Shown here: piece by piece, positions 2,543-40,343 of the stretch
Position numbering within the stretch: the stretch's first letter is position 1
How the letters are laid out: each line of letters begins with the position of its first letter
From: Bilabrum cf. latius
Lineage: Eukaryota
Direction of reading: 5' to 3'
NCBI GenBank assembly: GCA_965178125.1
Contig: OZ237746.1
Location: forward strand, 744,001-808,000
DNA length: 64,000 nt
The notes under the pieces: model-generated
Told to the model about the DNA's origin: nothing
Seen by the model: the letters and a program-made list of their open reading frames with translations, nothing else
Databases searched by the model: none
Translations under genes and position numbers: made by a program

Positions 2543-5500
2543 TCATGATACGGAGCATCCGCATCCGCATCCGCACCCAGGCCCCTATTCTGCTTCAGAG
2601 GTCCCAGTGTCACGCAATGACGCTTCATGCTCGCGTCGCTGTCGCTCCATCTCAGCTGCCCTGGCGTCTCGCAATGACGCTTCATGCTCGCGTCGCTGTC
2701 GCTCCATCTCAGCTGCCCTGGCATCTCGCAATGACGCTTCATGCTCGCGTCGCTGTCGCTCCATCTCAGCTGCCCTGGCGTCACACAACGACGCTTCATG
2801 CTCGCGTCGCTGTCGCTCTATCTCAGCTGCCCTGGCGTCACACAACGACGCTTCATGCTCGCGTCGCTGTCGCTCTATCTCAGCTGCCCTGGCGTCACAC
2901 AACGACGCTTCATGCTCGCGTCGCTGTCGCTCCATCTCAGCTGCCCTGGCGTCACACAACGACGCTTCATGCTCGCGTCGCTGTCGCTCCATCTCAGCTG
3001 CCCCGGCGTCACGCAATGACGCTACATGCTCGCGTCGCTGTCGCTCCATCTCAGCTGCCCTGGCGTCACGCAATACCGCTGCGTCAAGTTTTGTCTCCGA
3101 CTGCCTGGCAATCACCTCCTCCAGCACCTTCACGCACTCATCATGACCGCCCAATCGAGCCGCCTCCAATGGACCCACCATCGCCCCACCCTCCACCTCG
3201 CCCTTCATCTCCAGCCCACCCGCCAACCGACCCAGCCTCAGCCGCTTCCCCAGCTCCAACGGCCGACCCTCACTCGCAGCCCGGAACACCCTGCCTGCGT
3301 CCCTCTTGGCCTCCACCGCCCGGCGCCATCGAAGCACCTGACTCTTTCGATCAGCCTCCTCCAGCGCCAGCGCCTCCCCGCACAGACCAGCCAATCCAGG
3401 ATAGTCTATTTCCATTGCCCACCTCTGCACATCCCTGACTCGATCCAAGCATCTACCATCTCGTAGCGCATACCGTAACATAGGCTGCTCCTCCACCACA
3501 GGCACCCCATCCCGGTCCCTCTCCACCTCATCATACTCGGCCTTACACGCGTCTCCCATGCCCAGCACCAGAGACACCATCGCCATCGTGCCCGGGTCCC
3601 TCCCGCCCTCCCCCATGGGCCTGCCCATGGACCCCCGGATGGTGTCCATGCAGCTGGCCACGAATGCAGCCACTTGCGCCAGGTCCACGGCCCCGCCCTC
3701 AGCGGCTAGGTGCATGGCGGCCACGGCGCGGCCAGCGAGCACTCGGGGCTTGGGACTAGTGGTAGGTATAGATGCAGCAGTGCTTGGCCCAGGGTCGCTG
3801 GAATGTGCAATCTCTGTCTCTAGCTTTTGGTCCATCCACTTCCTGACGACCTTGTGCCGCTGCATGCCAAGCATTTTCTTGCCGTTTTTCGCGCGTCCAC
3901 CAACTGTCATTTCACTCATTGACCCGGACTGCATGGCTGCCTGCTGCATGCCCTCCAGGATAGCGTCACTCCATCTAGGCAAGACGAAGCCTACACTGAA
4001 TGCTTTGCATGTTGTGCTCGATGCAATTGCAGGCAAGAGATCTAATGCTACAGTTTCCGGAAGTCGTGAATAGGAGTCTAATGTCAGCCGACGCAAGGAA
4101 GCAGACTCGGAAAGCAGCCTCGCGAAGAATGGAGCAGATGCGGCAGACACGAGCTCATCCTACACTTTTATCTATTGCAGCGTGGGATGCCGTGCAGCAG
4201 CCTCAAATAGCACACAGCCTTCGTCATCTGTACTGTCACTAAGATCTACGTTTATTGCCAACTCCCGCAGAGTGGTGTTCCTAGCGATACCTACAGCCAG
4301 TGGCACGACACCCGCAGGCTGCAGGCCACATGATAGAATATCCAATCGGCGAAGAGCAATGCGTGGATTCTCGCCTAGTGCCTTCCCCAATGCAACGGGA
4401 GTCTATCCGCCGAGAGCTCGCCCTGTGCAACTCAGACCCAGCTCCTGCAGCGTGCTGTTCGACTGCAGCCCTACGGCGATTGCATGCCCACCCCCGCTCC
4501 CGAATTGTGCAACGCTGAGGTTCAGCATTTTTAGTGTGCTGTTGACTGCTAGCGCATTGCCCAAAGCCACAGCGCCATCATCTCTAATTCTGCTGCCTAT
4601 CAGCACGAGTTTCTCCAACATGCAGGAGGGCCGGGACAGCTGAGCTGCGATCTGTGTGGCCCCATCTGTCGGCACGTTGCAGCCTAGCAACAGTAGCTCT
4701 CTGAGGCCACTGCCAGCGGTGGGATTGCACTGCAGTAAGCTGTCAAATCCATCGCGAGAAATCTCGCAGTGTCGCAAGTGGAGCTTTCTGAGCGAGCATC
4801 CTCGAGGACAAGCAAGTGCCTCGCCGAGCAATGCTGCAAACTGCTCATTCAAGTAATCGGAATCCCCAATGTAGTCATCCGAGTTATCCGAGTCATCTGG
4901 AGTCCGTTGGGCCTGATACCAGGCCTAAACAAAGTCATTCAAGTCACCCGAGCCATCGGAATCATCCGAGCCATCCGAGCCATCCGAGCCATCCGAGCCA
5001 TCCGAGCCATCCGAGCCATCCGAGCCATCCGAGCCATCCGAGCCTACAGAGTCAGTGGCGCTATCCGAGTCATCCTAGACGCGCTTGCTCGCGTCGATGC
5101 GCAGACTCTCAAGCTTCAACCTCCCGCCCATTGCCCCTTCCCGAATGCCGCGAGCGAGAGGCACCATATCGGCAACGCTCTTATGGACCACGTCCAGCTT
5201 CAGCGTGCGGAGGGTCGAGTTGGTTGCAAGCGCATGCCCCCACGCTTCCATTGAAGCACCATGCATGGTCGCACCCTGGATGTTCAGCTCTTCCAATGCA
5301 TGGTTATACAATAATGCTCTAGATCCACTAACAGCATTGCTCGCGCCTTTCCAATTGCATAAGAATAGTCTGCGCAATGCCTTGTTCGCCTGTATGCTCG
5401 CGCACATGGACGCCGCAGACTTGGAATCGTGGCAGTCGATTCCCAGCTCCGTTAGACATGTATTGCTTGCGAGTAGCTGAATCAAAGAAGCACTCCTCTT

Positions 5501-5998
5501 TGCTATAAGTGGCTTTCCTGGGAGTAGTCTTGCCTTCAGCAACGACAAGGATCCATCAGCAGCTGTGCGGCCTGCCAGTAAGCTTCTGTTCCTGACGCTG
5601 TATTCTCCGCCGAAAGACTGCAAACCTGAGCGCTACAGAATGGCGGCTGATATGTTGTATCTAACGAGTGCTTCACCGTCGCAAGCTTTGAGCACGAAAC
5701 GGCGCAGAGGAGCTTTCGATTTCGAGAGGCTGCCCGCAAGCACAGCATGCCCGCTTTCTTGCAGTTTGCATCGGTTAATTTCGAGAGACTGGATAGTCAT
5801 ATTTGTAAGAAGTGCGTTACCAAGGCAAGCATACTGCTTCAGCCCCAACCTAGATCCAGTGACTTCGAGACAAGAAAGAGTAGACCACCCCATCACTTTC
5901 GAGAGCACATCAAGATCTCCTGAAAAGGTATCAAAGTTGATGCATAGGCGCCTGCATCCGCTCTTAATCTAGAGAAGAATTAATGAGGAATAGTCCAT
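2543..5998 (-). CDS. RNI-like LRR protein, paralog B (~1151 aa): LRRs, acidic (GSD)n insert, shared ankyrin-like module, 19-aa coiled-coil repeats, C-terminal CaaX-like CSVS
   Basis: ATG 5998 to TGA 2543 in one frame with 8 in-frame TAG (5969, 5633, 5075, 4925, 4403, 4172, 4160, 2585). It joins five pieces of the ORF track. Confidence 0.85.
2609..3075 (-). repeat. Coding tandem repeat, 57-bp unit x ~8 (ARAAEMERQRREHEASLRD), predicted coiled coil
   Basis: Near-identical units are directly visible. Confidence 0.95.
4964..5043 (-). repeat. Coding 9-bp repeat (atccgagcc)n encoding (GSD)n
   Basis: About 9 visible copies inside the acidic insert of paralog B. Confidence 0.9.
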
Positions 5999-6438
5999 TG
6001 CGTCAAATACTTGCGCAGAAGCGCGAAGGATCTAGGCTACCGGTACCTCGAAAAATGAATGGAGGACGCTGCCCCTCACTGCCAAAATTAAAGGCGGGTC
6101 GAGTCCTGCTCAAGACTAGTGGTGATCTCCCTACTTTATCATCAGCCTGTGGTCGAGTGATCCGATCCCATCCGGAGCTACTCCGCTCACTCCCAATCTT
6201 CACCCACATCGGATGCCACACCGCTGCCTGCCGGCCCGGTCTGCTGTCTCCCTTCTTCTTTCGCTTGCGTTCTTGCATGAGCAGTGGCAGGATCCCGGCA
6301 CCCTTGCTTGCCCTCCGACGACGACAGACTGTGGCATACAATGGTAGGCCAGTAGAAATAGTGAGTATCCCACCCTTCTCTTGTGTGCGATACTCACTAT
6401 TTCTGCGCGCGCCACGCCATATCATCATTGTGGGCGCA

Positions 6439-9129
6439 TCAGCCAATCCCAATCACCTCCTCCAGCACCTTCACGCACTCTTCGTGGCCGCCCAGACGAG
6501 CCGCCTCCAATGGACCCACCATCGCCCCACCCTACACCTCGCCCTTCATCTCCAGCCCGCCCGCCAACCGACCCAGCCTCAGCCGCTTCCCCAGCTCCAA
6601 CGGCCGACCCTCACTCGCAGCCCGGAACACCCTGCCTGCGTCCCTCTTGGCCTCCACTGCCCTGCGCCATCGAAGCACATGCCTCCGTCGATCAGTCTCC
6701 TCCAGCGCAAGCGTCTCTCCGCACAGACCAGCCAATCCAGGATAGTCTATTTCCATTGCCCACCGCTGCACGTCCCTGACTCGATCTAAGCATCTACCAT
6801 CTCGTAGCGCATACCGTAACATCGGCAGCTCCTCCACCACAGGCACCCCATCCCGGTCCCTCTCCACCTCATCATACTCGGCCTGACACGCGTCTCCCAT
6901 GCCCAGCACCAGAGATACCATCGCCATCGTGCCGGGGTCCCTGCCGCCCTCCCCCACGCCCACGGGCCTGCCCATGGACCCCCGGATGGTGTCCATGCAG
7001 CTGGCCACGAATGCAGCCACTTGTGCCAGGTCCACGGCCCCACCCTCAGCGGCTAGGTGCATGGCGGCCACGGCGCGGCCAGCGAGCACTCGGGGCTTGG
7101 GACTAGTGGTAGGTATAGATGCGGCAGTGCTTGGCCCAGGGTCGCTGGAATGTGCAACATCTGTCTCTAGCTGCTGGTCCATCCACCTCCTGACGACCAT
7201 GTGCCGATGCAAGCCGAGCATGTCCTCGTGAATCTTTGTGCGTCCACCAACTGTCATTTCACTCATCGACCCGGACTGCACGGCTGCCTGGTACATGCCC
7301 TGCACAATGGATTTACTCCATCCGGACCCTACGAAGCCTACTTCGAATACTTTGCATGTTCTGCTCGATGCAATCGCAGGCAGTAGAGCCCGCGCGGCAG
7401 CTTCCGGGAGTCGTGAATTGAAAACCATCAGCCGACGCAAAGATGCAGACTCGGAAAGCAGCCTCGCGACAAAAGGAGCAGATGCGGCAGATACAAGAGC
7501 GTCCCGCACTTGCATCCACTGCAGCGTAGGATGCCGTGCAGCAGCCTCAAATAGCACACCAGCTTCATAATCAGTTTTCTCACTAAGCTCTACGCTTATT
7601 GATAACTCGCGCAGAGTTGTGTTCCCAGCGAGGCCGGCAGCCAGAGGCACAACACCCTCGGGCTGCAAACCACATGATGCAATATCCAATCGACGAAGAG
7701 CAATGCCTGGATTCTCGCCTAGTGCCCTCCCCAGTGCAACCGGTGTCTATCCGCCGAGAGCCCGCCCTGTCCAATTCAGATCCAGCTCCTGCAGCGTGCT
7801 GTTCGACTGCAGCCCGACTGCGATTGCATGCCCACCCTTGCTTCCAATGCTTCCCATCATCTCCTCCGGCAAGCAGAGATCTTTGAGGGTGCTATTGACT
7901 GCCAGCGCATCGCCCAGAGCCATAGCACCATCGTCTTCAATTTTGCAGTCTATCAGTACAAGTTTCTCCAACACGCACGCGGGCAGGGACAGCCGAGCTG
8001 CAATCAATTTGGCCCCATCCGAGTCCACGTTGCAGTCTGACAGGAATAGCTCCCTGAGACCACTACCAGCGGAGCTGTGCCCCCGCAGTAGGTTGTCAAA
8101 TCCATCGCGAGAAATCTCGCAGTGTCGCAAGTGGAGCTTTCTGAGCGAGCATCCTCGAGGACAAGCAAGTGCTTCGCCGAGCACCGTCACAAACTCATCT
8201 AATTGTTGCGTGCTCGCGCAAATGTGCAGACTCTCAAGTCGCAGCGCCCCCTTCATCGCTCCTTCCCGAATGCCACGAGCAAGAGGCACCATACCAGTCG
8301 TGCTGCCATACATAGAATCCAGCTTTAGCTTGCGGAGGGTCGAGTTGGTCGCAAGCGTCTGCCCCCATGCCTCCATTAAAGCACCATTCATTGTCAGCCC
8401 TTCGATGCTCAGCTCTTCCAACGTATGGTTATGCGGCAATACTCTGGCTAAACTCATCAGCGTGTTCTCGTCTGTTGCATCCCATAAGCTGAGCCGGCGC
8501 AATGCATTGTTCGCTTTCAGGCCTCTGCAGAAGGACTCCGCTGACTTGGACTCGTGGCAGTCGATGCTCAGCTCCGTAAGGCATGTGTTGCATGAGAGAG
8601 ACCGAATCAAAGAAACGCCCTTTATTGCTAGAGGTGGCGACCCCGGCACTAGCTTTGCCTTTAGCAATGAAAAGGATCCATCAGCAGCCTCGAGGCCTTG
8701 GCTTATCTCACTGTCACCGTACTCTCCGTCGAAAGACTGCACACCTGATCGCTACAGAATGGCAGCTGCTGTTTTGAAGCTATCATGATTCCCATCAGAC
8801 AATTCTTTGCAGTCCTTGAACACGAAACGGCGCAAAGGAGCTCTCGGTTTTGCAAGGCTGTCCGTAAGAACTGAATGACCGTCCTCCTGCAGCTTGCATC
8901 GTTGAACGTCGAGAGACTATATGGACTCATTTTTAAGCAACGCGCTACCAACACAAGCATACTGTCTCGGCCCCAAGCTTGATCTTTTGACTTCAAGAAT
9001 AGAGATGCTCTTAGACAGTCCAATCGCTTCCTAGAGCACATCGAGATCTCCTGAAAATGCATCAAAGTTGATGCACAAGCGCCTGCACTTCTGATTTATT
9101 TTGTCAATTATAAGAGACGAGTATTCCAT
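6439..9129 (-). CDS. RNI-like LRR protein, paralog C (~896 aa), ending just after the shared ankyrin-like module
   Basis: ATG 9129 (MEYSSLIIDKINQKCRRL) to TGA 6439, with in-frame TAG at 9031, 8917, 8752, 7747 and 6532. Highly similar to A and B. Confidence 0.85.
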
Positions 9130-9282
9130 TACGTCTTTGCACTACACAGAAGTAGAGAACCTGCCAGGAAGGAAGCGCCAGTGCAACAGGGTTCGATTCG
9201 GCGCCGCGGGTTCGGCTGAGTTCGCTGATGAGAGCGAGAATCGCTGGCACATCAACACTTCTCTTGGGTGGATTCCTTGCAG

Positions 9283-12200
9283 ATGTAGGCATCAACTCTG
9301 CCAATTTACGGCGCAATAGCCCCTTTGGTAGTGTCTGCAGCGATTGCAGGGGCATGCATGGCAGCTGGTAAACCTGAAACCATGATTGCTGTCGCTGCCG
9401 TGCTGGGCGGAGCACTCGGTTGCCTTGGTGCTGGTGGCTTCTTCTCGGCCGCAATGCTTTGCATCGCAGCAGTCTGTGCGTACATTTGGTCTCCAATAGA
9501 TACTTCGTACTTCATGCGGCCATCCTGGCCTCTTGCATACGCGGTGTGCGCACTGGCGGCTGGTTTCGCGGCGGGAGCTGTGGGAGCTTTCGCGGACGCC
9601 GTTGCAGCAACCATCCAAGACGGGGCGGTAGCGGGAGGAACCGGCTTCGCTGCGCCGGCACCATGCGAGAAAGCTGCAAACCTGAGATCTCCTGCCGCTG
9701 CAGTTCGCAAAGAAGCCGTGTCAACCATCCCCGAGCAGACCCAAGTGCCTCCCACCTCTTTTGCTGACGTGGTGATCGTCGGAGCCGGGACCGCTGGGGC
9801 TTCGCTCGCGGCTCGCCTCGCAAGGGACGGGAGGAAAGTTGCAGTTGTTGAGAGCCACATGCAGCTGGAGGTGAGCCATCATTTTCCCGGCCGAATTCCG
9901 CGTGTTGCAACACTGCTCTCTTCGCGTCAAGCGCAAAGTCGCTTCCATGAGCATTACAGCTCGGTGACCGCCGTGCAAGTCGACTTACACCAATCCTTGT
10001 AGTGCATTGTACAGGTTTGGTACCGTTGCGACTCCCAAAGCCCACCCGTTTGATGGGCTGCTGACCGCCGATGCCACACTGTGCAGTTCCGTTGGGGCCT
10101 CTTCGTCTGCCATTGGAGTCCGCTTGCAATTCGCCCATATCCAATCACATGCATTTCTCCAAAATACTCCAGTCCCACCGCATTCGCATTTGATTCATTC
10201 GCAGGCGCGCATCGTGGGCGAGCTCATGCAGCCTGGCGGCGTGCGCTCCCTCGAGCGCATGGGGCTGGCCGACGCATGCAAGGACGGCAGGGCCAGGAGC
10301 GTGCGCGTGGACGGGTACGTCGTCGTGCCCAAAGCAACGGACGCGGGAATCCGCGACGAGTCCATGGCCAAGCAGATCGCCGAGAAGGAGCAGCCCGAGG
10401 GCGACGGGTTCGCCAGAAGGGACGCGCGCATCGAGGGGGCTGTCCTCCTCAAGTACCCCAGCACGGACCCGGAGGGCGGGGCAAGGCACTTTGGATTCGG
10501 AGCCCAGGCGGCCGACGAGGCCGGGGCCGTGGAGGCGCAGTTTGGCGAGGAGACCCGCCGCGTCAACGCCGCCCTCGACCTGGCCAGAGCGGCGGGCGTG
10601 GGCGCCTAGTCCGAGGAGAAGGAGCTGGACGTGGGCGATGGGCTGACGGACGCGCAGTCAGGGGCGCTTGCGGGGCTGGGCGGGGCCGGGGGCAACGGGA
10701 CCGGGACCCTCGTCCGAACGTCGGCCTCTGTTCCCCAGGGAACAAGCCAGTGGGGCGTGGACCCCATGCCCAGGGGCCGGTCGTTCCACAACCACCGGTT
10801 CGTGGCGGGGCTGAGGAGGCTGGCCTTCAGGGAACAGAACGTGCGGCTGTGCGTGGGGCGGGCGAGGGATGTCCTGCGATGCGGTGGGGAGGGTGACGAG
10901 GTGGCCAAAGCGGCGGCTGCCGGGGACGCTCGGAGGGTCAGCGATCTGCTGGTGGAGGCAGAGGAGGAGGCGCTGGGGCGGGCGCTCGGGGAGGAGGAGA
11001 AGCAAGTGGCGGAGCGGGTGGCGAGGCAGATGACGAGTGCCGCATCCAAGGCCTAGGGAACTAGCGGTAGGGGTGGTCAAACCGGCGAGGGGCGCGCGGT
11101 TGGGATCCGCTGGGTGCCGCACGGGGAGAGCAAGCCAAGGACCGTGCACGCCCCCCTTGTGGTCATCGCCGACGGGATGTTCTCGGGTCTCAGGCGGAAT
11201 GTGACGAGTGCGAAGCCTAGGCTGGTGAGCCATTTCGTGGGCCTGGTGATGCACCACCCCCCCATGGAATCCCCCCTCCCTTACAGGCACAGGGGGCACG
11301 TGTGCCTCACGGAGCCCACCCCCACGCTGGCCTACCAGATCAGCCCGTGCGCCACCCGCCTGCTGGTGGACTGTCCCACCCTCCTGCCCTCTGATGACGG
11401 GCTGTACCTCCCACTGGACGGAGAGGGAGAAGCAGAAGGGGAGCGCAAAGAGGACGGCGAAGGCGAAGAGGAGAAGAAGGACGAAGACGAGGAGGAGGAG
11501 CAAGAGCAGGAGGCCCAGGGAACAACGGACGGTGTTCCCCCGGGTGCTGTGAAGGACCTCAAGCCCGGCACGAGGGTGAAGAAGGTGGTCAAAGACAGCA
11601 CGCTGGCCGCCTACATCCGCTAGCACACGCTCCCGCAGCTCCCCGCGGGCTCCCTGCGAGAGGCAGCCAGGCGCGCCCTGGACACCCAGGTGCCCCAGCC
11701 GTGCGGGAACAGGTACCTGCCCGTGGCCCCCGAGGCCGAGGAGGACGGCCGCGGCAACGGGTCCACCGGCGTGGTGCTGCTGGGGGATGCATGGAACATG
11801 AGGCATCCGCTCACCGGCGGGGGCATGACGGTGGCACTCAAGGACACGGAGGCGCTCGCCGATGCGTTGCGCGGCGCCACTCTGGAGGAGCTGCGGAACC
11901 AGGGAGTGGAGGACCTCGGCGAGGAGCAGGCCCGGAAAGTGTCCGTTGACCTGGGCAGCCCCGCGGCCCTTGACGCTGCTTTGGACGGCTGGAAGGCCAG
12001 GCGCACCACGCACGCCTCCACGGTTAATGTGCTTGCCAACGCACTGTACGACGTGTTTAGCGTGCCTGAAGAGAAGGAGACCAAGTCGGGTGGGTCAGGG
12101 AACAAGGGGTCAGGGAACAAGCTGGACGTCGCGCTACAGGACCCCGCCACCCGCAAGGGTCTACGGGACGCGTGCCTGAACTACCTGGGCATGGGCGGGG

Positions 12201-12544
12201 CGTGTTCCGCCGGCCCCGTGCATCTCCTCGCTGCACTGACGCCATCCCCCGGCGTGCTCACTGCGCACTTCTTCTCGGTTGCCTTCAAGGCAGTGGGCGA
12301 TTCCGTGCTGCCCGTGCCCACCCCCTCCTCGGTTCGGCAGGCGTACATGACCGTGTGGGCCGCGTGCAGGATCGTGATGCCGCTGCTGGCGGATGAGAGA
12401 GCCACGCCGCTGGCCTGGCCGGCTGTGCAGACCGCCGTGAACCTCTTGTTCCCCTGGCGGGACGCGCACGTCAGTGCCGTGCCCAAGAGGAGTAGGAGGG
12501 GGAGGGTGGGGGTGGGGGTGGGGAAGAAGAAGGCAGTGGCATGA
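9283..12544 (+). CDS. SQLE: Squalene epoxidase (monooxygenase), ~975 aa; exons 9283-9870 and 10205-12544
   Basis: Motifs DVVIVGAGTAG, RIVGELMQPGG, GRSFHNHRF, APLVVIADGMFS, SHFVGL, LLGDAWNMRHPLTGGGMTVALKD, TVNVLANALY. GTGAGC...GCAG phase-0 intron. In-frame TAG at 9286, 10607, 11054 and 11621. The start codon is inferred. Confidence 0.93.
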
Positions 12545-12751
12545 GGTGAAGAATTCGGGGGTGTGGGGGGAGGTGGTGCTGGCGAGTGTGTGAAGCCCAC
12601 GCCGGTGAGTCTTCGTTCTAGCTAGGAACGATGCGCTAGTGGGTTGGTGGGTGGTGGACGGTAGATTTGCCGTATGGGCATGGGGGCTCTGGGGCCTTGT
12701 GCGACTGTGATGCTCATTGTCTATGGTGACCAACTGCGGTCACGATGGCTG

Positions 12752-16807: not shown

Positions 16808-17524
16808 TCAAGCTTCAATATCTGCTCGTGCTCTGCGCAGCAGGTCTGCACATTCGCTGTGATCGCCAATACGAGCTGCTTCTAGAGGTACCACGTGCCG
16901 TATTGGTGTTTCTAGCCCTGAGCTGATCGTGGATGCAAGCTCCCCACGTCTGTCAAGCCCACCAGCCAGCTTACCCAATCTAAGCCGCCTTGCAAGCTCC
17001 ATTGGACGCCCCTCTGCTGCTGCTCGAAATATAAGGCGTGCATCTTGTTGCGCTTCAATGGTTCGCCTCCACAGAAGCAAGCTCTTCTGTTTTCTGGGAA
17101 CGAAGTCGCGTATTTCGGTTGCCAGGGCTTGAAATCCATTCTTTGCAGCCACTTCCGATGGTAATTCGCCGCTTACATTCCTAATCCTCCGATCCGCTCT
17201 CGCTTCCAGAAGGACCCGAGCGCAAGAAGACTGTCCACGTTTCGCTGCAACGTGCAGCGGCGTGTCTGTACCCGTCGGGGTTTCTCCGGTGGCGCGAAGA
17301 ATATCATATCTGGATAGCATGCATGCGTGCATGTCTGCTCCGGCCCCTATAAGTTCGCGCACAAGCTCGCTATGCCCGTGAACGCAGGCGATGTGCAGTG
17401 GCGAGCTGCCTAGGCCGTCGTTGAAGACAGTGTTCGGATCCGCCTTGGAAGCAATACATGATCGTAAATTTTCCAGGTTGCCAGAACATATCGCGTGCCA
17501 AAGCTCCAGCTCAATCCCTTCCAT
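16808..17524 (-). CDS. Ankyrin-repeat protein (238 aa) with the shared C-terminal module
   Basis: Ankyrin motifs SPLHIACVHGHSELVRELIGAGAD and TPLHVAAKRGQ; C-terminal WRRTIEAQQDARLIFRAAAEGRPMELARRLRLG. Confidence 0.9.
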   Translation of the reverse strand: MEGIELELWHAICSGNLENLRSCIASKADPNTVFNDGLGSSPLHIACVHGHSELVRELIGAGADMHACMLSRYDILRATGETPTGTDTPLHVAAKRGQSSCARVLLEARADRRIRNVSGELPSEVAAKNGFQALATEIRDFVPRKQKSLLLWRRTIEAQQDARLIFRAAAEGRPMELARRLRLGKLAGGLDRRGELASTISSGLETPIRHVVPLEAARIGDHSECADLLRRARADIEA

Positions 17525-17640
17525 CGTTCGCTGTCAAAATGTCCTGCGTGCGACCAATTGCGATGTCGCTCCGAGTAGGACCTAGCCGTTCGCTGTATTA
17601 TCACGAACAACGGTTCACCTTCATTACAGCTCTGGGGGGT

Positions 17641-28750: not shown

Positions 28751-29762
28751 GCTTTAGACATATCATGCTGGCCGTTGGGAGTTGCCGCAACGTGGCAGGA
28801 GCACCTGACGGGCCGTCCTGAGTCACGGACCGTCCTTGCTGGCATAACTACACGCAACCGGCCCGGGTTGAATTCTGGGCCAAAGGCATGAGCGCGTGCA
28901 TGCTAGCCTCTCTGAAGGACCGTGAGACGCAGAGACGGTCATGGAGGAGGAAATGGTGGATCCCGGCAGGGGACCCTGATGTGGGACTGGACCGCGCTTT
29001 GTGCCGGGCACATGCTCCGCACCTGTATGCTTTCTCCCTGTGAAGGCATCAGGCTGAGGGCTTGTGGGGGACCACATTGATGGCGAATAAAGGGGACTCG
29101 GCGGTGTAGGCTGAGATTGGGGGGCTTCTGGCCTGAAAGGGTCGGGGGCCTTGTAGTCCTTGTTTGAGGACTCCTCTGGATTCAGGTGATCACTCGAACT
29201 CCTTCGGGGGCAACGGTACATCTGGGTGCTTGTGGAATCTTTACCCAACAATGTATTTCTGTATTTCTGTATTCTGGTTTGAAGCGTGCACGCTGGACAG
29301 GCTGGACTAGTCTAGTTCATTCTGCGCCTTTTCGCCTTAAGTCATGTGAGTTGTGGTTTATGCTTGGGACTGCAATAGATAGTGTCTCTGGAATCTCAAG
29401 CTAGCAATGGGTCATGATGCTCGAAGCCTCAGGCAGCTGCAGGGTGGGGAAGGGCATTGCCTGCACCCGGTGCCGTGCGATTCTTCTCGGCTGCCCCATC
29501 CACCTGCCCAAATGGGACTCATCCGGTTTGATCTTACTGATGCATAAACTCCATTAGTATTGATCAATCACGGATATTGGGCGACTGAGGCCATCCAGGC
29601 CCCGTCCGTCAAGCGGCATGATTTGATCTTTCACCCAAATGATGCGGCTCCTCTCTCGTCTGACCTGGGGGCCGGCGGCAGGGGCTGAATATGCCGGTAC
29701 ATTCAAAATCAGATGCATCGATGGATTGCTTTTTATTTTATTCCATCCGCCAACCATCGCAG

Positions 29763-32700
29763 GTCGGGCTAGTCGCTGCTCGAGGCATCAAAAGACGGGG
29801 ATGAGCCACGCGTGCGTTAGTTGATCGAGCAAGGCACAAGCGTACACTATAGAGACAGTGTGAGCTGAACTGTCACGTGACAGAATGAATAGATTGGGTG
29901 CGGGCCCATGGCCAACAAGTGCACTATTGGACCATAGTTGTAACCTCTGACTCAGGCTCACCCCCTCGTGTTCCAACCTCATTTCTCTATCGATCGCTGC
30001 CTGTGCCGGTGCAATCCTCCATCTTGTATGTGATTTCATACTCTCTCCCACAATGCATCGCAGGAAGGGTGGACTCCTCTCCGTTGGGCCTCCGAGAATG
30101 GCTATGAGGGCATCGTGAAGCTGCTCCTGGATGCCGGGGCCTATGCACGGGCAGTTGACGGAGTGAGTGTGTGCGATGAATTTGGTAGGCAGGTTTTGGT
30201 TGGGATGGATCTATCAGGCGGGATGGGAGAGGGCGAATAGGTCGATGGGCAGCATGGTCGGACAGACGGGGGCAGGGAGGATGCAAGGGGGCCGATAGTG
30301 GGCCTTGATGTGCTTTGCAAGCTTGGAGGTATGCTCGCTGTCCCATTTGTCTAGCTGGCTGCCACTGTTCCTGCCACGTCGAATGTAGTACCGGTCCCTA
30401 TTCTTGACTCAGCGCGGTATGCGCCCCTTTAATTTTCCATCCCGTGTGTGGCCAGCTATCTCTCTTGCACGATGCATCGCAGTTTGGGAAGACTCCTCTC
30501 CATTGGGCCTCCTAGAAAGGCCATGAGGGCATCGTGAAGCTGCTCCTGGATGCCGGGGCCTATGCACGGGCAGTTGACGGAGTGAGTGTGTGCGATGAAT
30601 TTGGTAGGCAGGTTTTGGTTGGGATGGATCTATCAGGTGGGATGGGAGCGGGCGAATAGGTCGATGGGCAGCATGGTCGGACAGACGGGGGCAGGGAGGA
30701 TGCAAGGGGGCCGATAGTTGGCCTTGATGTGCTTTGCAAGCTTGGAGGTATGCTCGCTGTCCCATTTGTCTAGCTGGCTGCCACTGTTCCTGCCACGTCG
30801 AATGTAGTACCGGTCCCTATTCTTGACTCAGCGCGGTATGCGCCCCTTTAATTTTCCATCCCGTGTGTGGCCAGCTATCTCTCTTGCACGATGCATCGCA
30901 GGAAGGGTGGACTCCGCTCCATGGGGCCTCCTAGAATGGCCATGAGGGCATCGTGAAGCTGCTCCTGGCTGCCGGGGCCTATGCACGGGCAGCAGACATA
31001 GTGAGTGTGTGCGATGAATTTGGTAGGCAGGTTTTGGTTGGGATGGATCTATCAGGTGGGATGGGAGCGGGCGAATAGGTCTCTCACTCCGAGCAAGCAT
31101 TACAAGATCGGCCGATGGGCAGCATGGTCGGACAGACGGGGGCAGGGAGGATGCAAGGGGGCCGATAGTGGGCCTTGATGTGCTTTGCAAGCTTGGAGGC
31201 ATGCTCGCTGTCCCATTTGTCTAGCTGGCTGCCACTGTTCCTGCCACGTCGAATGTAGTACCGGTCCCTATTCTTGACTCAGCGCGGTATGCGCCCCTTT
31301 AATTTTCCATCCCGTGTGTGGCCAGCTATCTCTCTTGCACGATGCATCGCAGTTTGGGAAGACTCCTCTCCGTTGGGCCTCCGCGAATGGCCATGAGGGC
31401 ATCGTGAAGCTGCTCCTGGCTGCCGGGGCCGATGCACGGGCAGTTGACGGAGTGAGTGTGTGCGATGAATTTGGTAGGCAGGTTTTGGTTGGGATGGATC
31501 TATCAGGCGGGATGGGAGAGGGCGAATAGGTCGATGGGCAGCATGGTCGGACAGACGGGGGCAGGGAGGATGCAAGGGGGCCGATAGTGGGCCTTGATGT
31601 GCTTTGCAAGCTTGGAGGTATGCTCGCCATCCTCTTCGTCTAGCTGGCTGCCACTGTTCCTGCCACGTCGAATGTAGTACCGGTCCCTATTCTTGACTCA
31701 GCGCGGTATGCGCCCCTTTAATTTTCCATCCCGTGTGTGGCCAGCTATCTCTCTTGCACGATGCATCGCAGTTTGGGAAGACTCCTCTCGATTGGGCCTC
31801 CGCGAATGGCCATGAGGGCATCGTGAAGCTGCTCCTGGATGCCGGGGCCTATGCACGGGCAGTTGACGGAGTGAGTGTGTGCGATGAATTTGGTAGGCAG
31901 GTTTTGGTTGGGATGGATCTATCAGGCGGCATGGGAGCGGGCGAATAGGTCGATGGGCAGCATGGTCGGACAGACGGGGGCACGGAGGATGCAAGGGGGC
32001 CGATAGTGGGCCTTGATGTGCTTTGCAAGCTTGGAGGTATGCTCGCTGTCCCATTTGTCTAGCTGGCTGCCACTGTTCCTGCCACGTCGAATGTAGTACC
32101 GGTCCCTATTCTTGACTCAGCGCGGTATGCGCCCCTTTAATTTTCCATCCCGTGTGTGGCCAGCTATCTCTCTTGCACGATGCATCGCAGTTTGGGAAGA
32201 CTCCTCTCCATTGGGCCTCCTAGAATGGCCATGAGGGCATCGTGAAGCTGCTCCTGGCTGCCGGGGCCGATGCACGGGCAGTTGACAGAGTGAGTGTATG
32301 GGATGAATTTGGTAGGTAGGTTAGCTCTGGACGCATCCATAAGGATCTGGCTTGGTTGCTACTTTGGTTTCAATTCATGTTGCCCGGCCTGGTGACCTCT
32401 TGCTTTGTTTTCTGTGTCGCCACCATGGCCCTTTTTGTTTTTCTTGCATGCGCCGGTCCTGGTTGACCTGCCGTTCTCCCCATCTAGCCACCCGCCTGTT
32501 GGCGATCTGCGCGCTGCTGGCCATGCAGCAAGCCGCCATTCACGTCTCCCTCGTGTCTAACACCTGGAGCCCCTTTCTTCCAGGTTTGTTCTCGCCATTT
32601 ACACTGCACTATTGTCGCCTGTGCCGGTGTCTCTCTCTTGTCCCTCTCCACCTTCTGTCCTCCTGAGCCCACCTCGTCTTCCGGCTCACATCTTCTCCCC

Positions 32701-35700
32701 GTCGCTTCAATCCTGATGTCCGATAACATGTAACAGGATTGGAAGGGTTATCGGCTGGATAGGTTGATGGCTTCAAAGGGCGAGATTTGGCAGAGTTTCG
32801 TAGCGCTTGCTCGGAGTTCAGTCACAAATGTGTAGACCCACCAGTTAATGGTGCTGAGATAGAGAACGACAGGGCATAATACCTAGGGTAGCCTGAGGCA
32901 CCAGCCTCGGAGTCACTTGGTCCACTGTGTCGCCTTCCGCGACCCTTGCCGACACGGCCGGTATGCATGTGTCCCTGCATCCCTCCCTCCATCTTGTATG
33001 TCAATTCCCCCCCTCACCGATGTTGCATTTTTGCGCAGGACAGCAGGACACCTGAGGATCTGGCCCTGCTCAACGGTCATATGGCAGTCGCCGACCTGCT
33101 ATGGGAGGCAGCTGGCAGGGGCAAGAGAGACATGCGGAAGGTGCTGTTTGGGACGTCCGTGGCCGGGAACGAGTCCCGGGTGCGTCGCTTAATCGGGCAA
33201 GGGGTAGATGTGAATTATATTAGCGGTGTGAGTATGATTGCAGCGTGGCGAGAAAGGCTAGCTTATGGGCCCATAGGTGGGGGAGAAAGAAGACTCCCAG
33301 GACGAGCTCTTTGGTTCCCGTGTCCAACATCTAGTATCGGTCCTTCGTCTCATCGTGCCCCTTCCTCACCATGCGTTTTCCTCTACCTGCCCCATTTAAT
33401 TCATTGCTGAATGTGCCCTTGAGCCGCTATAAAGAGTACCTGAACCCCTTTTTTCCTTGAACGATGCATCACAGGACAATTAGACTCCTCTCCATTTGGC
33501 CTCCAGGAATGGCCATGAAGGCATCGTGAAGCTGCTCCTGGATGCCGGGGCCGATGCACGAGCATTAGACAGTGTGAGTGTACGGAATGCATGTGATAGG
33601 CAGGTGGTGATTGAGCTGGATCCATCAGGCCGCGGGATGGGAGCGGGCGGATCTGTCGATGGGCAGCATGGTCGGACCGACTGGGGCAGGGAGAATGGAA
33701 GGGACCAGGAGTGCGGCTTGCGGTGCTTTGCAAGCTTGGAGGCATGCTCGCTGTCCCCTTTGTCTACCTGGCTGCAACCTTCCTGCCGCGTCCACTCTAG
33801 TTGATTCAGCGCGGCATGCGCCCCATTATCCTTCCATCCCTTATGTGACCCGCTGTATCCCTCGCACGATGCATCGCAGTTGAAGGAGACTCCTCTCCAT
33901 TGTGCCTCCAGGAATGGCCATGAGGGCATCGTGAAGCTGCTCCTGGATGCCGGGGCCGATGCACGGGCAGCAACCGATGTGAGTATATGTAATGGATTTG
34001 GTCGGCAGGTTGGATTGGGATCGGTCTATTAGGCGAGATGGGAGCGGTCGATTCTGGCGATAGTCAGCATGGTCAGACAGACGGGGGCAGGGTGGATGGA
34101 AGGGACCAGGAGTGCGCCTTGCGGTGCTTTGCAAGCTTGGAGGCATGCTAGCTGTGCTCGTCGTCTAGCTGGCTGCCACCGTTCCTGCCGCATCTACTCT
34201 AGTTGATTCAGCGCGGCATGCGCTCCATTATCCGTCCATCCCTTATGTGACCCGCCGTCTCCCTCGCACGATGCATCGCAGTACAAGAAGACTCCTCTCC
34301 ATTGTGCCTCCGCGAATGGCCATGAGGGCATCGTGAAGCTGCTCCTGGATGCCGGGGCCGATGCAAGGGCAGCAAACAGTGTGAGTGTATGCAATGGATT
34401 TGGTCGGCAGGTTGGATTGGGATCGGTCTATTAGGCGAGATGGGAGCGGGCGAATCTGGCGATAGTCAGCATGGTCAGACAGACGGGGGCAGGCAGGATG
34501 GAAGGGATCAGGAGTGCGCCTTGATGTGCTTTGCAAGCTTGGAGGCATGCTGGCCTCCCCCACTATTTAGCTGGCTATGATTGATCCCGCCGCGTCCAAT
34601 CTAGCACCGGTCCCTGTCTTTGTATTTATGGCGGCATGCGCGGCATGCGCCCTTGTATCCGTTTATCCGGGGATCTCGTTTGTCACACTGTATGTCCCCC
34701 CCACGATGTTTCACAGCGCAAAAAGACTCCTCTCCATTTGGCCTCCGAGAATGGCCATGAGGGCATCGTGAAGCTGCTCCTGGAAGCCGGGGCCGATGCA
34801 CGGGCAGCAAACGATGTGAGTGTATGTAATGGATTTGGTCGGCAGGTTGGATTGGGATCGGTCTATTAGGCGAGATGGGAGCGGTCGGATCTGTCGATGG
34901 GCAGCATGGTCGGACCGACTGGGGCAGGGAGAATGGAAGGGACCAATAGTTCGCCTTGATGTGCTTTGCAAGCTTGGAAGCATGCTAGCTGTGCTCGTTG
35001 TCTAGCAGGCTGCCACCGTTCCTGCCGCGTCTACTCTAGTTGATTCAGCGCGGCATGCGCCCCATTATCCGTCCATCCCTTATGTGACCCGCTGTCTCCC
35101 TCGCACGATGCATCGCAGTTGAAGGAGACTCCTCTCCATTGGGCCTCCTAGAAAGGCCATGAGGGCATCGTGAAGCTGCTCCTGGATGCCGGGGCCGATG
35201 CACGGGCAGCAACAGTGAGTGTATGCAATGGATTTGGTCAGCAGGTTGGATTGGGATCGGTCTATTAGGCGAGATGGGAGCGGGCGATTCTGGCGATAGT
35301 CAGCATGGTCAGACAGACGGGGGCAGGGTGGATGGAAGGGACCAGGAGTGCGGCTTGATGTGCTTTGCAAGCTTGGAGGCATGCTAGCTGTGCTCGTTGT
35401 CTACCTGGCTGCCCCCGTTCCTGCCGCATCTACTCTAGTTGATTCAGCGCGGCATGCGCTCCATTATGCGTCCATCCCTTATGTGACCCGCTGTCTCCCT
35501 CGCACGATGCATCGCAGTACAAGGAGACTCCTCTCCATTGTGCCTCCAGGAATGGCCATGAGAGCATCGTGAAGCTGCTCCTGGATGCCGGGGCCGATAC
35601 AAGGGCAGCAGCCAGTGTGAGTGTATGTAATGGATTTGGTCGGCAGGTTGGATTGGGATCGGTCTATTAGGCGAGATGGGAGCGGGCGAATCTGGCGATA

Positions 35701-38700
35701 GTCAGCATGGTCAGACAGACGGGGGCAGGGTGGATGGAAGGGACCAGGAGTGCGCCTTGCGGTGCTTTGCAAGCTTGGAGGCATGCTAGCTGTGCTCGTT
35801 GTCTAGCAGGCTGCCCCCGTTCCTGCCGCATCTACTCTAGTTGATTCAGCGCGGCATGCGCTCCATTATGCGTCCATCCCTTATGTGACCCGCTGTCTCC
35901 CTCGCACGATGCATCGCAGGACAATGAGACTCCTCTCCATTTTGCCTCCGCGAATGGCCATGAGGGCATCGTGAAGCTGCTCCTGGATGCCGGGGCCTAT
36001 GCACGGGCAGTTGACGGAGTGAGTGTGTGCGATGAATTTGGTAGGCAGGTTTTGGTTGGGATGGATCTATCAGGCGGGATGGGAGAGGGCGAATAGGTCG
36101 ATGGGCAGCATGGTCGGACAGACGGGGGCAGGGAGGATGCAAGGGGGCCGATAGTGGGCCTTGATGTGCTTTGCAAGCTTGGAGGTATGCTAGCTGTGCT
36201 CGTTGTCTAGCTGGCTGCCACCGTTCCTGCCGCATCTACTCTAGCACCGGGCTCTGTTCTTGCTTCAGCGCGTCATGCGCCCATGTATCCGTCCATCCCG
36301 TATGTGACCCTCTGTCTCCCTCTCGTACGATGCATCGCAGTACGGGATGATTCCTCTCGATTGGGCCATCGAAAATTGCCATGAGGGCATCGTGAAGCTG
36401 CTCCTGGATGCCGGGGCCGATGCAAGGGCAGCAACAGTGAGTGTATGCAATGGATTTGGTAGTCAGGTGGTGGTTGGGCTGGATCTAGCAGGCGGGATGG
36501 GAGCGGGTGGATCTGTCGATGGGCAGCATGGTCGGACAGACGGGGGCAGGGAGGATGGAAGGGACCAGCAGTGCGCCTTGAGGTCCTGTGCAAGCTTGGA
36601 GACATGCAAGCCTTTCCTTTGTCTCAATGGCTGCCACCGCTCCTGCCACATCCACTCTAGCACCGGGCCCTGTTGTTGACTCAGCGCGGCATGCGTCCCT
36701 TGATCCCCCCATCCCGCTGTCTCTCCCTCCCACGATGCATCGCAGTTCAATGGAACTCCTCTCCATTTTGCCTCCGCGAATGGCCATGAGGGCATCGTGA
36801 AGCTGCTCCTGGATGCCGGGGCCGATGTACGGGCAGCAACAGTGAGTGTATGCAATGGATTTGGTAGGCAGATGGTGGTTGGGGTGGATCTAGCAGGCGG
36901 GATGGGAGCGGGCGGGTAGGTCGATGGGCAGCATGGTCGGACAGACGGGGGCCGGGAGGATGGAAGGGACCAGGGGTGCGCCTTGAGGTCCTTTGCAAGC
37001 TTGGAGACATGCTAGCAGTCACCTTTGTCTAGACGACTGCCACCGTTCCTGCCGCATCCACTCTAGCACCGGGCTCTGTTCTTGCTTCAGCGCGGCATGC
37101 GCCCCTTGATCCGTCCATCCCGTATGTGACCCTCTGTCTCCCTCTCGTACGATGCATCGCAGTTCAATGGAACTCCTCTCCATTTGGCCTCCGAAAATGG
37201 CCATGAGGACGTCGTGAAGCTGCTGCTTGCTGCCGGGGCCGATGCACTGGCAGTAGACGAAGTGAGTACGTGTTAAGGATGCGCTAGGTAGGTTAGGTCT
37301 GGACGCATCCATCAGGAACTGGCTTGGATGCTACATGGCTTCCAATTCATGCTGCCCGCCCTAGTGACCTTGGGCTTTATTTTTTCTGTATCGCCACCAT
37401 GGCCTTTTTTGCTTTTCTTGCATGCGCCGGTCCTGGTCGACCTTCCATGCGCCTCATCTATCCTCCCGCCCGTTGGCCCTCTGCGTGCTGCTGGCCATGC
37501 AGCAAGCCGCCATTCGCGTCTCCCTCGTGTCTTCCACCTGGAGTCCCCTTTTTCCAGGTTTGTTCTCGCCATTAACACTGCACTATTGTCGCCTGTGCCG
37601 GTGTCTCTCTCTTGTCCCTCTCCACCTCCTGTCCTCCTGAGCCCACCTCGTCTTCCGTCTCACCTCTGCTCCCCGTCGCTTCAATTCTGATGTCCGAGTA
37701 CATGTAACAGGATTGGAAGGGTTATCAGCTGGATAGGTCGATTGCTTCCAAAGGCGAGGTTTGCCAGAGTTTTGTAGCGCTTGCTCGATGTTCAGTAACA
37801 AATGTGTAGACCCACCAGTCAATGGTGCTGAGAAAGATAGCGACAGGGCAAAATTCCTAGGGTAGGTGCCAGCCTCGGAGTCACTTGGTCCACTGTGTCG
37901 CCTTCCGCGACCCTTGCCGACACGGCCGGTATGCATGTGTCCCTGCATCCCTCCCTCCATCTTGTATGTCAATTCCCCCCCTCACCGATGTTGCATTTTT
38001 GCGCAGGACGGCAGGACATCTGAGGATCTGGCCCTGCTCAACGGTTATATGGCAGTCGCCGACCTGCTATGGAAGGCAGCTGGCAGGGGCAAGAGAGACA
38101 TGCCGAAGGTGCTGTTCGGGGCGTCCGTGGCCGGGAACGAGTCCCGGGTGCGTCGCTTAATCGGGCAAGGGGTAGATGTGAATTATCTTAGCGGTGTGAG
38201 TATGATTGCAGCGTGGCGAGAAAGGCTAGCTTATGGGTCCATGGGCGGGGGAGAAAAAAGACTCCCAGGACGAGCTCTTTGGTTCCCGTGTCCAACATCT
38301 AGTATCGGTCCTTCGTCTCATCGTGCCCCTTCCTCACCATGCGTTTTCCTCTACCTGCCCCATTTAATTCATTGCTGAATGTGCCCTTGAGCCGCTATAA
38401 AGAGTACCTGAACCCCTTTTTTCCTTGAACGATGCATCACAGGACAATTAGACTCCTCTCCATTTGGCCTCCAGAAATGGCCATGAAGGCATCGTGAAGC
38501 TGCTCCTGGATGCCGGGGCCGATGCACGAGCATTAGACAGTGTGAGTGTACGGAATGCATGTGATAGGCAGGTGGTGATTGAGCTGGATCCATCAGGCCG
38601 CGGGATGGGAGCGGGCGGATCTGTCGATGGGCAGCATGGTCGGACAGACGGGGGCAGGGAGGATGGAAGGGACCAGGAGTGCGCCTTGCGGTGCTTTGCA

Positions 38701-40343
38701 AGCTTGGAGGCATGCTCGCTGTCCCCTTTGTCTCAATGGCTGCCACCGTTCCTGCCGCGTCCACTTCTAGCACCGGGCCCTGTTGTTGACTCAGCGCGGC
38801 ATGCGCCCCTTTATCCGTCCATCCCTTATGTGACCCGCCGTCTCCCTCGCACGATGCATCGCAGTACAAGGAGACTCCTCTCCATTGTGCCTCCAGGAAT
38901 GGCCATGAGAGCATCGTGAAGCTGCTGCGAGAGGCTGCGACTGCATGGCCACTGCCTTTCAGAAGCTATCGTCTAAGGATGGCGGCAGTGCGGTGGAGGC
39001 AGGGGGGGCGGGCGAAGAGGGACGCCGGGTATATATTCATGTGCTCGAGGGATGGCAGGCCTCTTGAGCTAGAGAGGAGACTACGACTGGGGGCCAAGGC
39101 TGGTGCGCTGGAGAGGAAGGGGGCTGTGGATGGGCCCATTCGGGACCTGCTGCTTGAACTGCTCGAGGGGCGGGCGTAGGGGCTTGACGCGGCGAGCGGG
39201 GAAGGGGTCAAGCTGGAGTGCGGGCCCGTGGCAGCGGCTTTGATCGGGGGTCATGACGAGTGCGTGGGGGTGCTGGTGGAGGGGATGCAGCGGGAGTGTA
39301 AGGGCAGCGAAGAGAGTCTGCTGGAAGTGCTGGAGAGGCAGGCAGTCACGATGAGGAGGAGCGGTGGCGGTGGTGGAGATGGGGCGTCAGCGGCTGCTGG
39401 GGAGGGGGAGAGTGAGAGTGAGAGTGAGAGGGTGGAGGTGTTGTCCCTGTGGGAGCTGCTTCGGCTGGTGATGAAGAGGCGCGTAGCAGCGGGGGAGGAG
39501 ACGGTGGCAGGAGGCTTGGTGGCGCTGCAAGAATGTTTCTAGGAAGTGATGCCGCTTGCGGTAGAAAAACTTGCGGTAGCTGCTTCAGAAGCAGCCGCGG
39601 TGTGCGTGTGTACCCCCATGCAGGAGTTACTGGCATGCAAGGCGACAGGGGGCGCCGAGGGGCAATCGATCGAGGCAGAGGGACGAGTGGATGCATCGTG
39701 GGATGGTTCGTCTGCCGTTGATCAGCTGAGGGAGGTCATGGTCGGCAGTCGGCAGCTGGTCATGAAGGGGCTTCGAGATGCTGTTGGTGCTTGTATGCCA
39801 ATTAAACAGATGATAGGCCCGTCCATGGAGGGGCTGTCGGTGGGCATGCTGGCCTTGCCGAATGACGAGTGCGAGGGGAGGCACAGGGAGGCGATGGAGT
39901 GCGTGAGGGGGGTGCTGACGGGGGTGCTGGGGGGAGGGGAGAGGGGGGGGTGGGGATGGGGCGAGGTGGAGGGGGCTATGGCACAGCTGCTTACCGGGGC
40001 TGCGTAGGAAGGGAAAGAGGGGAAGGAAGTACGGGATGGTGAAATCGCTGATGCAGTGGTTGGGGTCATACCGGAGGCGAAGGCACCGTCATTCTCGGCA
40101 GGTGTTGTTCGTCAATGGCGAGAGGGGGGGTTGTCTGAGCGCTGTCTGGGCATCGTCCGGCTTGATGGCGCTGGGACAGGTGGCTGGACAGCAGGTTTGC
40201 AAGGGGCATCGGCAGGGAGTGCGTGGGATGATTGGGGACTGTCGGCAGAGAGCGTACCCGCCTCTGCTCCACCGGGGACAGGTGGGGGCGGTTGGGGCGA
40301 TAGTGGTGGGGCCAGTGGGGGCGATGGAGACCGATGGTGGTGA
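29763..40343 (+). CDS. Multi-exon ankyrin-repeat protein (~1200 aa, at least 21 exons; first exon and start codon unresolved)
   Basis: Exons at 29763-29859; 99-nt exons at 30064, 30483, 30902, 31353, 31772, 32191; 33039-33227; 99/96-nt exons at 33475, 33880, 34282, 34717, 35119, 35518, 35920, 36341, 36746, 37163; 38007-38195; 38443-38541; terminal exon 38865-40343. All have CAG acceptors and GTGAG donors. Repeat consensus xxxTPLHxASxNGHEGIVKLLLDAGAxARA. Confidence 0.9.
30050..38920 (+). repeat. Tandem array of ~400-420 bp exon+intron units
   Basis: Near-identical introns (about 300-350 bp) alternate with single ankyrin exons. The 32.2-33.8 kb block is duplicated at an offset of 4968 bp. Confidence 0.95.

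Follow-up and report, generated by a model that had tools for sequence, protein, structure and literature searches.

Four copies of one conserved protein domain of roughly 85 residues, referred to here as the module, are found in a 64,000-nucleotide stretch of Bilabrum cf. latius DNA (GenBank assembly GCA_965178125.1, contig OZ237746.1, positions 744,001 to 808,000 of the forward strand; hereafter the window). The copies, which are confirmed, belong to two of three tandem paralogues with leucine-rich repeats (LRRs; the genes LRR-A, LRR-B and LRR-C), to a small ankyrin protein and to a gene composed of a tandem array of ankyrin (ANK) repeats. Judged from sequence profiles and predicted structures, the module is ankyrin-derived and defines a family of its own, and its first half is under strong purifying selection. 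We propose, with a probability of about one half, that it acts as a shared docking domain for one common partner or site.

The initial annotation of the window described a motif common to four genes, and a six-frame motif scan recovers exactly these four sites, with the annotated coordinates right to within about 20-30 bases (Table 1). The word GRP[LMIV]E[LM] likewise occurs exactly four times (3251-3268, 6592-6609 and 16994-17011 on the minus strand and 39054-39071 on the plus strand), each time within the full motif, and RLRLG marks the same four copies together with one unrelated site at 29108. Aligned under NCBI table 15, the copies share 28 invariant columns, and the identity to copy 1 is 90, 48 and 49 % for the other three. 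A hidden Markov model (HMM) of the four copies, run with filters off on all six-frame open reading frames (ORFs) of the window, gives only four full-length matches (136-157 bits, from a model trained on those same copies) and at most 7 bits for everything else. A family HMM built mostly from sequences outside the window scores the four copies at 58.6-124.7 bits and ordinary ANK exons at 2-11 bits, the latter over the second half only. Copy 4 differs by a 25-residue insertion in its hairpin loop, which is also present in its close relatives P0006 and P0004.

Between LRR-B and LRR-C, protein identity is 82-97 % over the last 240 or so codons, which take in the module, and third-position identity is 0.87-0.93; in the N-terminal LRR part, the two values are 53-83 % and 0.60-0.82. 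Such a pattern points to a 3' part that recently was duplicated or underwent gene conversion. Because of this near-identity, the independent versions of the module in the window number three rather than four. Summed contig depth in run X1, whose contigs stop at 3225, is 118.8 over 3080-3564 and 67.4 over 6475-6959, against 15.5 over the adjoining single long contig; the excess hints at further near-identical copies of the module region elsewhere in that assembly, depth being no copy number.

Two of the copies contain an in-frame TAG, at 6534-6536 in copy 2 (GAG at that place in copy 1) and at 39177-39179 within the loop insertion of copy 4. In the nuclear genes, TAG is a sense codon, most likely for glutamine, and TAA and TGA are the stops, as in table 15. 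With TAG read as sense, the window contains frames of 2390, 2068, 2062, 1813, 1188 and 950 codons, the longest under the standard code being 879. TAG stands at glutamine positions of GQ repeats (e.g., at 50631), further sense sites lie at 44483 and 44489, and all three LRR paralogues carry TAG at matching positions (550/4405/7749 and 1681/5635/8754). A conserved glutamine of the module is encoded in 73 metagenome relatives by CAG (67), CAA (4) or TAG (2). All 11 window frames checked end in TGA, while the relatives' frames end in TGA (60) or TAA (24). In an alignment of the glutathione synthase, TAG at residue 207 falls on a non-conserved position, opposite N or K. A tRNA scan of the window returned no gene and an Rfam scan no family, and no suppressor tRNA was seen there. 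With this code, the in-frame TAGs of copies 2 and 4 are not breaks, and LRR-B and LRR-C each form a single frame of 1188 and 950 codons, respectively. Standard gene callers split genes of this code into pieces, and the relative P0004 ends at the site matching the window TAG at 39540.

That the in-frame TAGs might be 3' ends of read-through introns was considered and rejected, as the sites lie inside continuous LRR and GQ repeats and contigs run collinear across them. Specifically, contigs of run X2 are collinear with LRR-B over 5015-5940 and with LRR-C over 7804-9139, crossing several TAG codons (in LRR-C those at 8754, 8919 and 9033). These contigs are a weak hint of unspliced LRR transcripts, run X2 being labelled 'RNA? 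(probably DNA)' and no listed run being on record as RNA.

Beyond the window, a search of 1.84 billion representative proteins with the four-copy HMM gave 170 matches at E<=1e-3, 91 of them at E<=1e-10. Classification of 151 outside proteins (150 listed matches and P0003) separated 81 whose match is a single stretch over at least 70 of the 98 profile positions, 33 fragments with the first half of the module, 30 that match over the second half only (29 long generic ANK arrays and one 40-residue family fragment) and seven other cases, six of which resemble family fragments. The best single stretch of the 29 generic arrays scores 3.3-16.6 bits and covers only profile positions of about 53-97, whereas family members reach 38-119 bits with a single stretch that spans most of the profile. 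These matches set the module apart from generic ankyrin caps, and the concern that a profile of the four copies would fit such caps equally well is not borne out.

Where a source is listed for a relative, it is ENA, JGI or Logan in every case. A metagenome scan with the pattern AA[AS]EG[RQ]P[LM]E found 115 relatives, of which 79 loci were kept, with four record prefixes only; an earlier metagenome scan, with a pattern from the four-copy alignment, had given 596 pattern matches and no relative. There was no relative among 422 pattern matches in 185,579 prokaryote genomes or among 46 in viral contigs, each scanned with one or two peptide patterns only, which is weak evidence of absence. These results fit the suggestion that the domain is lineage specific, within the limits of one or two patterns. 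Five peptide words of the module motif were searched for in the literature without an occurrence being found.

The family signature begins with a basic long helix, [WF]RRAxEAxRDA..., followed by a cap-like repeat, VFxAAxEGRP[LM]EL x[KR]RLxLGKLAGG; the second half comprises a variable hairpin loop and then one canonical ANK repeat, TPLEAAxxGGHxECVxxL. In the 81 relatives found without the search pattern, conservation before the loop is high at R14 (0.92), A19 (0.96), R21 (0.86), D22 (0.94), A23 (0.91), F27 (0.83), A30 (0.94), G33 (0.99), R34 (0.90), P35 (0.96), E37 (0.98), L38 (1.00), R41 (1.00), L42 (0.93), L44 (0.94) and G45 (0.99). The variable loop comes next, and after it P74, A77, A78, G82, H83 (0.91), C86 (1.00) and L90 (0.88) are conserved. 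R14, R21, D22, R34, E37 and R41 are the conserved charged residues. Over a 40-codon core, 75 distinct DNA versions have a protein identity of 0.894, with 0.918 at codon positions 1 and 2 and 0.690 at position 3; most of the conserved residues use several synonymous codons, and the core flanks RAHEAHRDARLVF and LQRRLVLGKLAGG, which lie outside the search pattern, are as conserved as the pattern residues. This shows strong purifying selection on the first half of the module. With the protein conserved and third positions drifted, the core is an old constrained peptide rather than a recently spread DNA repeat.

The AlphaFold2 model of the LRR-B module, made with a 70-row alignment, has a mean predicted local distance difference test score (pLDDT) of 95.7 and a predicted template modelling score (pTM) of 0.80. 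It places helices at residues 2-32, 35-48, 65-71 and 75-88 and a hairpin at 55-62, such that a predicted first helix of 31 residues is followed by a second helix, the hairpin and a canonical ANK helix pair. The best Foldseek matches in the PDB are nearly all ANK proteins (FEM1B, ORP1L, designed ankyrin repeat proteins (DARPins), ASB9 and ASB11; TMq 0.58-0.62). In an exhaustive VIA-align search, the best 50 rows are again nearly all ANK proteins: the highest Z, 9.2, belongs to a helix-fused DARPin (78 residues, root-mean-square deviation (rmsd) 2.3), and ANK proteins reach Z 7-8.4 with an rmsd of 1.6-2.0 over 56-61 residues, at about model residues 18-87. A search of solved chains with the family profile yields 325 matches at E<=1, the best listed being ANK proteins and DARPins, and the alignment of the profile to them spans ELxKRL to the module end. 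The second unit follows the superfamily-level ANK repeat pattern (TPLH / GH..V..LL), and the first, by eye in our own alignment, that of the DARPin N-cap (F.AA..G....L..RL.LG). None of the four module pieces matches any Pfam family at E<=10. On the models and searches taken together, the module is ankyrin-derived and beyond the reach of the Pfam Ank models; the idea that it is a divergent ankyrin pair preceded by a helix is well supported by the predicted structure, the fold searches and the profile match of its second half to solved ANK proteins. The nearest ESM Atlas clusters to a module query are generic, mostly bacterial ankyrin proteins (score 0.97), and one 92-residue cluster near the module was also returned; both came without alignment and are leads only.

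A model of the whole small ankyrin protein (pLDDT 89.5, pTM 0.68) contains four ANK repeats, a long helix at 144-171 and the module, the helices of which are at 144-171, 174-183, 213-219 and 223-237. Its best matches are engineered DARPin-DARPin fusions with a shared helix (E 6.6e-9, rmsd about 15 A, TMq 0.33), and single DARPins fit only the first 140 or so residues (rmsd 1.6-1.8). From this model we infer that the module does not prolong the stack but forms an ANK-like unit of its own, carried on a helical stalk.

With respect to position, the module is strictly C-terminal in LRR-C and in the small ankyrin protein, as the initial annotation had stated for all four genes; in LRR-B and in the array gene, the frame continues past it. 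Among the metagenome loci, the module ends within 3 codons of a stop in 60 of 84 full matches and within 15 codons in 74; in the database proteins, it ends within 15 residues of the protein end in 54 of 81. A Pfam scan of 70 members found Ank in six and Ras in one, none over the module itself. LRRs accompany the module in L076 (an LRR_6 match) and, judged by eye, in L040, L078, P0045 and P0047; BspA-like repeats, also by eye, in P0120, P0123 and P0143; and ANK repeats in the longer locus frames of L005, L063, L064, L070 and L071. The 614-codon frame of L007 is without a known domain. Scanning 79 same-strand ORFs (those with the module and others at most 3.5 kb upstream of one) revealed 16 loci in which single ANK repeats end at GT, a layout as in the tandem array of the window, and in terminal exons the module is often immediately preceded by one more, degenerate ANK repeat. 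Two copies of the module are present in 9 of 79 metagenome loci. ANK arrays are thus the commonest partner, and the module is also joined to other domains; its placement on exchangeable N-terminal repeats holds up, with ANK arrays, LRRs, a Ras-like GTPase and BspA-like repeats as partners.

Copies, family, fold class, C-terminal position, varied partners and purifying selection are thus matters of observation, and the proposed docking function goes a step further. Its basis is the uneven conservation of the module, the first half being near-invariant and the second half and the loop variable. The near-invariant half would be the putative docking surface for one common partner or site; through it, variable repeat arrays with different ligands could be plugged into the same downstream machinery, much as a SOCS box or an F-box acts on substrate receptors. 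The adaptor or effector role put forward in the initial annotation would thus be plausible for the module. Several points weigh against this proposal. That a common partner is bound is something we infer, and the strong conservation could equally reflect the folding constraints of a cap, many of the conserved residues (A, L and G) being usual ANK core positions. The metagenome search pattern fixes its nine residues in that set by construction. Foldseek with the module alone never reaches E 1e-3 (best 0.013), the majority of relatives are short pieces from gene calling, probably truncated at TAG codons or introns, which leaves the architecture counts incomplete, and Pfam gives no SOCS-box, F-box or BTB signal in the module, so that the likeness to SOCS-box and F-box proteins is one of architecture only.

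The module might instead be merely structural, i.e., the C-terminal ANK capping repeat of this lineage, carried to other repeat proteins and having no partner of its own. Such a cap would agree with the resemblance of the first repeat to a DARPin N-cap by eye, with the match of the second half to solved ANK proteins, with the prevalence of ANK arrays upstream and of a degenerate last repeat directly before the module in terminal exons, and with the many conserved positions that are typical ANK core residues. However, the module also ends LRR, Ras-like GTPase and BspA-like repeat proteins, which offer no ANK stack to cap; in the model of the small ankyrin protein, it hangs on a long helix and does not extend the stack; and it is about 89 % identical over 75 paralogue versions despite synonymous drift, whereas caps are normally the least conserved repeats. 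We therefore regard a mere cap as unlikely. It is rather improbable that the module is a homo- or hetero-oligomerisation domain whose long helix joins family members into mixed assemblies. A helix of 28-31 residues does precede the ANK pair, the first half is nearly identical in many paralogues, and the charged 19-residue repeat tail of LRR-B could be coiled-coil-like; yet the module is confidently predicted as a compact monomer in which the long helix packs in the place of ANK helix 1, and no hydrophobic heptad pattern extends beyond the face expected to pack on helix 2. A two-copy prediction made without an alignment scored 0.00 and bears on oligomerisation neither way.

The immune-receptor locus suggested initially, for which no direct support was obtained, corresponds to a further view, in which the module would be the part for signalling or effector action in receptors of innate-immune type, a family whose genes cluster and diversify in the manner of NLR loci. 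Three tandem LRR paralogues that have diverged in the N-terminal LRRs (protein identity 0.53-0.83) and are homogenised in the C-terminal part, the presence of four module copies within 36 kb of the window, two copies in 9 of 79 short metagenome loci and the large size of the family are what such a view would lead one to expect. Against this, a Pfam scan of LRR-A, LRR-B and LRR-C gives no signalling domain, be it NACHT, NB-ARC, TIR, death-fold or another; an ANK pair is not known to have enzymatic or death-fold-like activity; squalene epoxidase, cathepsin, acyl-CoA oxidase and glutathione synthase genes are interspersed between the copies; and a very large family gives neighbouring copies by chance. 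An immune role of this kind is thus very unlikely. Finally, the TAG-bearing copies could be pseudogenes and the motif decaying repeat DNA, given that copies 2 and 4 are interrupted under the standard code. This is extremely improbable, since TAG as sense yields frames of 950 to 2390 codons and occupies glutamines of GQ repeats, positions shared among LRR paralogues and, in 2 of 73 relatives, the conserved glutamine of the module in place of CAG or CAA, all 11 window frames checked end in TGA, and third-position drift with a conserved protein is a mark of selection.

Gene models in the window are stop-to-stop frames under table 15, and the long frames may include introns. The order in LRR-B is LRRs of the ribonuclease inhibitor (RNI) type, an acidic linker, more LRRs, about 215 residues without assignment, the module and the repeat tail; the acidic run DSDGSDG and the 57-base repeat tail are present in LRR-B and without counterpart in LRR-C. 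The N-terminal parts of all three paralogues contain LRR_6 repeats, as RNI-type LRRs do, with Pfam E-values of 3.8e-07 for LRR-A, 3e-04 for LRR-B (under the curated cut-off) and 5.3e-11 for LRR-C. At E<=1e-3, LRR_6 and LRR_1 are the only Pfam families found on the three proteins, and neither SOCS_box nor F-box matches the module pieces or the full frames. The best Pfam Ank stretches of the small ankyrin protein (residues 11-129) lie upstream of the module. In the tandem array, each unit consists of one exon with exactly one ANK repeat and one intron, and exon and intron were therefore amplified together; the array makes up the upstream portion of one or two ankyrin-array genes. The near-duplicates 32880-33410 and 37866-38378 resemble N-terminal exons of two successive array genes. 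The first 60 or so codons after the module of the array gene are kept in the relatives P0004 and P0006.

Table 1. Window coordinates of the module copies, of the genes that carry them and of skipped stretches in neighbouring genes
Feature	Position	Strand	Description
Module copy 1	3098-3364	-	In LRR-B, residues 916-1004 of the 1188-codon frame; four-copy HMM 138.9 bits
Module copy 2	6442-6705	-	C-terminus of LRR-C; stop TGA 6439-6441; four-copy HMM 136.1 bits
Module copy 3	16814-17107	-	C-terminal end of the small ankyrin protein (residues 140-238 at 16811-17107), followed by the stop TGA 16808-16810; 156.9 bits
Module copy 4	38958-39299	+	Last exon of the ankyrin-array gene; 141.9 bits; family HMM 58.6 bits
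LRR-A	2..2146	-	Third tandem paralogue; 3' end beyond the window edge, module region outside view
LRR-B	2546..6109	-	Open frame, TAG=Gln, 1188 codons, 9 in-frame TAG; probable start ATG near 5998
LRR-B post-module tail	2609..3074	-	57-base unit x 8.2, a charged 19-residue repeat, ARAAEMERQRREHEASLRD
LRR-C	6442..9291	-	Open frame, TAG=Gln, 950 codons, 6 in-frame TAG; probable start near 9129
Small ankyrin protein, four ordinary ANK repeats	17108..17524	-	Residues 1-139; Ank_2 6.4e-19, Ank 8.8e-18
Tandem ANK array	30041..37267	+	About 17 units of 402-419 bases; further units to about 38900
Ankyrin-array terminal frame	38790..40343	+	Last ANK repeat 38853-38939, module, about 347 more codons, TGA
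Skipped stretch	9868-10203	+	GT..AG
Skipped stretches	14721-14873, 15264-15461, 16028-16217, 16243-16508	-	GT..AG, seen as CT..AC; 16243-16508 with CT..TA

Between the module copies lie housekeeping genes, which encode squalene epoxidase, cathepsin, acyl-CoA oxidase and glutathione synthase. Five skips bounded by GT..AG in the squalene-epoxidase and cathepsin genes appear in contigs of runs X2 and X7, and those of runs X1 and X6 are without these skips; the skips are real introns of 151-334 bases, one of which (16243-16508) ends in CT..TA, with four other letters between its sides. The first exon of the cathepsin gene, with the signal peptide, begins directly downstream of the small ankyrin gene stop. 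The G+C content, which ranges from 0.53 to 0.69 over the window, is 0.53-0.60 in the LRR and ANK regions (1-9300 and 29000-39000) and 0.63-0.69 in the regions of housekeeping genes and long ORFs.

A different element of the window is the 13-base word GGTGTGACGAGTG, with 37 sites at no more than one mismatch between 18756 and 63116, where 0.05 are expected and none of 100 shuffles reaches this number. It occurs in both orientations (e.g., at 25088/25106, 51003/51018 and 54903/54921) and in G+C-rich parts only, never in LRR or ANK regions. Where it lies on the strand of a long open frame, the frame reads GVTS in 15 of 15 cases (counted by eye). Some copies fall in segments that have no counterpart in homologues, perhaps introns or insertions. 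The possibility that the word is a general splice donor was rejected, since none of the five introns from spliced contigs begins with it. At 58099-58455, a 33-base unit repeated 10.8 times at 99 % identity encodes, within the 2068-codon frame, the 11-residue repeat GGASGSAGAVA. Several further long frames (17425-22866, 40553-47725 and 57792-63998) are without any Pfam match.

Irrespective of its function, the module defines a distinct, easily recognised ankyrin sub-family that is missed by current Pfam models, and it marks a big paralogous family in a variant-code eukaryote lineage, the genes of which are fragmented by standard gene callers. If the near-invariant half docks to one partner, protists would have in this family a new example of modularly wired receptors, and the module itself would be a convenient bait for that partner. 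If the module is only a cap, it would still be of use as a marker in annotation and as a naturally occurring pair of ANK units with a shared helix. A bolder extension of the docking proposal, which we consider quite doubtful, is that the module is the hub domain of a large, fast-diversifying receptor family connecting hundreds of ANK, LRR or GTPase 'sensors' to one machine, for which a ubiquitin ligase or a defence or self-recognition complex would be candidates; the family would then be a functional analogue of SOCS-box or NLR systems that arose from a different fold.

Within the ankyrin superfamily, the module resembles other members in its predicted fold, a hairpin flanked by a pair of helix-turn-helix units, of which the second reads TPL..AA..GH.ECV..L. 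It is unlike them in having no Pfam Ank match at E<=10, in the length of helix 1 (about 31 residues, with a conserved basic motif), in a first unit with its own near-invariant EGRP[LM]EL, [KR]RLxLGKLAGG signature, in a variable inter-repeat loop that exceeds the usual length by 8 to more than 30 residues, and in its C-terminal location, also on non-ANK proteins. In architecture, the family recalls the ASB proteins and the F-box-LRR receptors, which likewise combine variable ANK or LRR arrays with one short conserved helical module in a large family; in the ASB proteins, this shared module, the SOCS box, is C-terminal too. However, the fold is that of ANK repeats and not the three-helix SOCS box, and there is no sequence or Pfam similarity to SOCS, F-box or BTB domains. 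PLELxK of the module does not fit the BC-box pattern, and a link to cullin ligases is not part of the likeness, which concerns architecture only. The NLR/STAND receptors share with the family the LRR or ANK sensor repeats, the tandem paralogues and a large lineage-specific expansion; here, by contrast, Pfam detects no central nucleoside triphosphatase, the module lies C-terminal to the repeats instead of forming an N-terminal effector, and its fold is not a signalling fold. The closest geometrical parallel is found among engineered, rigid DARPin-DARPin fusions (e.g., 5le7), in which two ANK units are likewise built on one continuous shared helix. These are man-made and differ in the relative orientation of their units, so that it is the geometry alone that the module and the fusions have in common.

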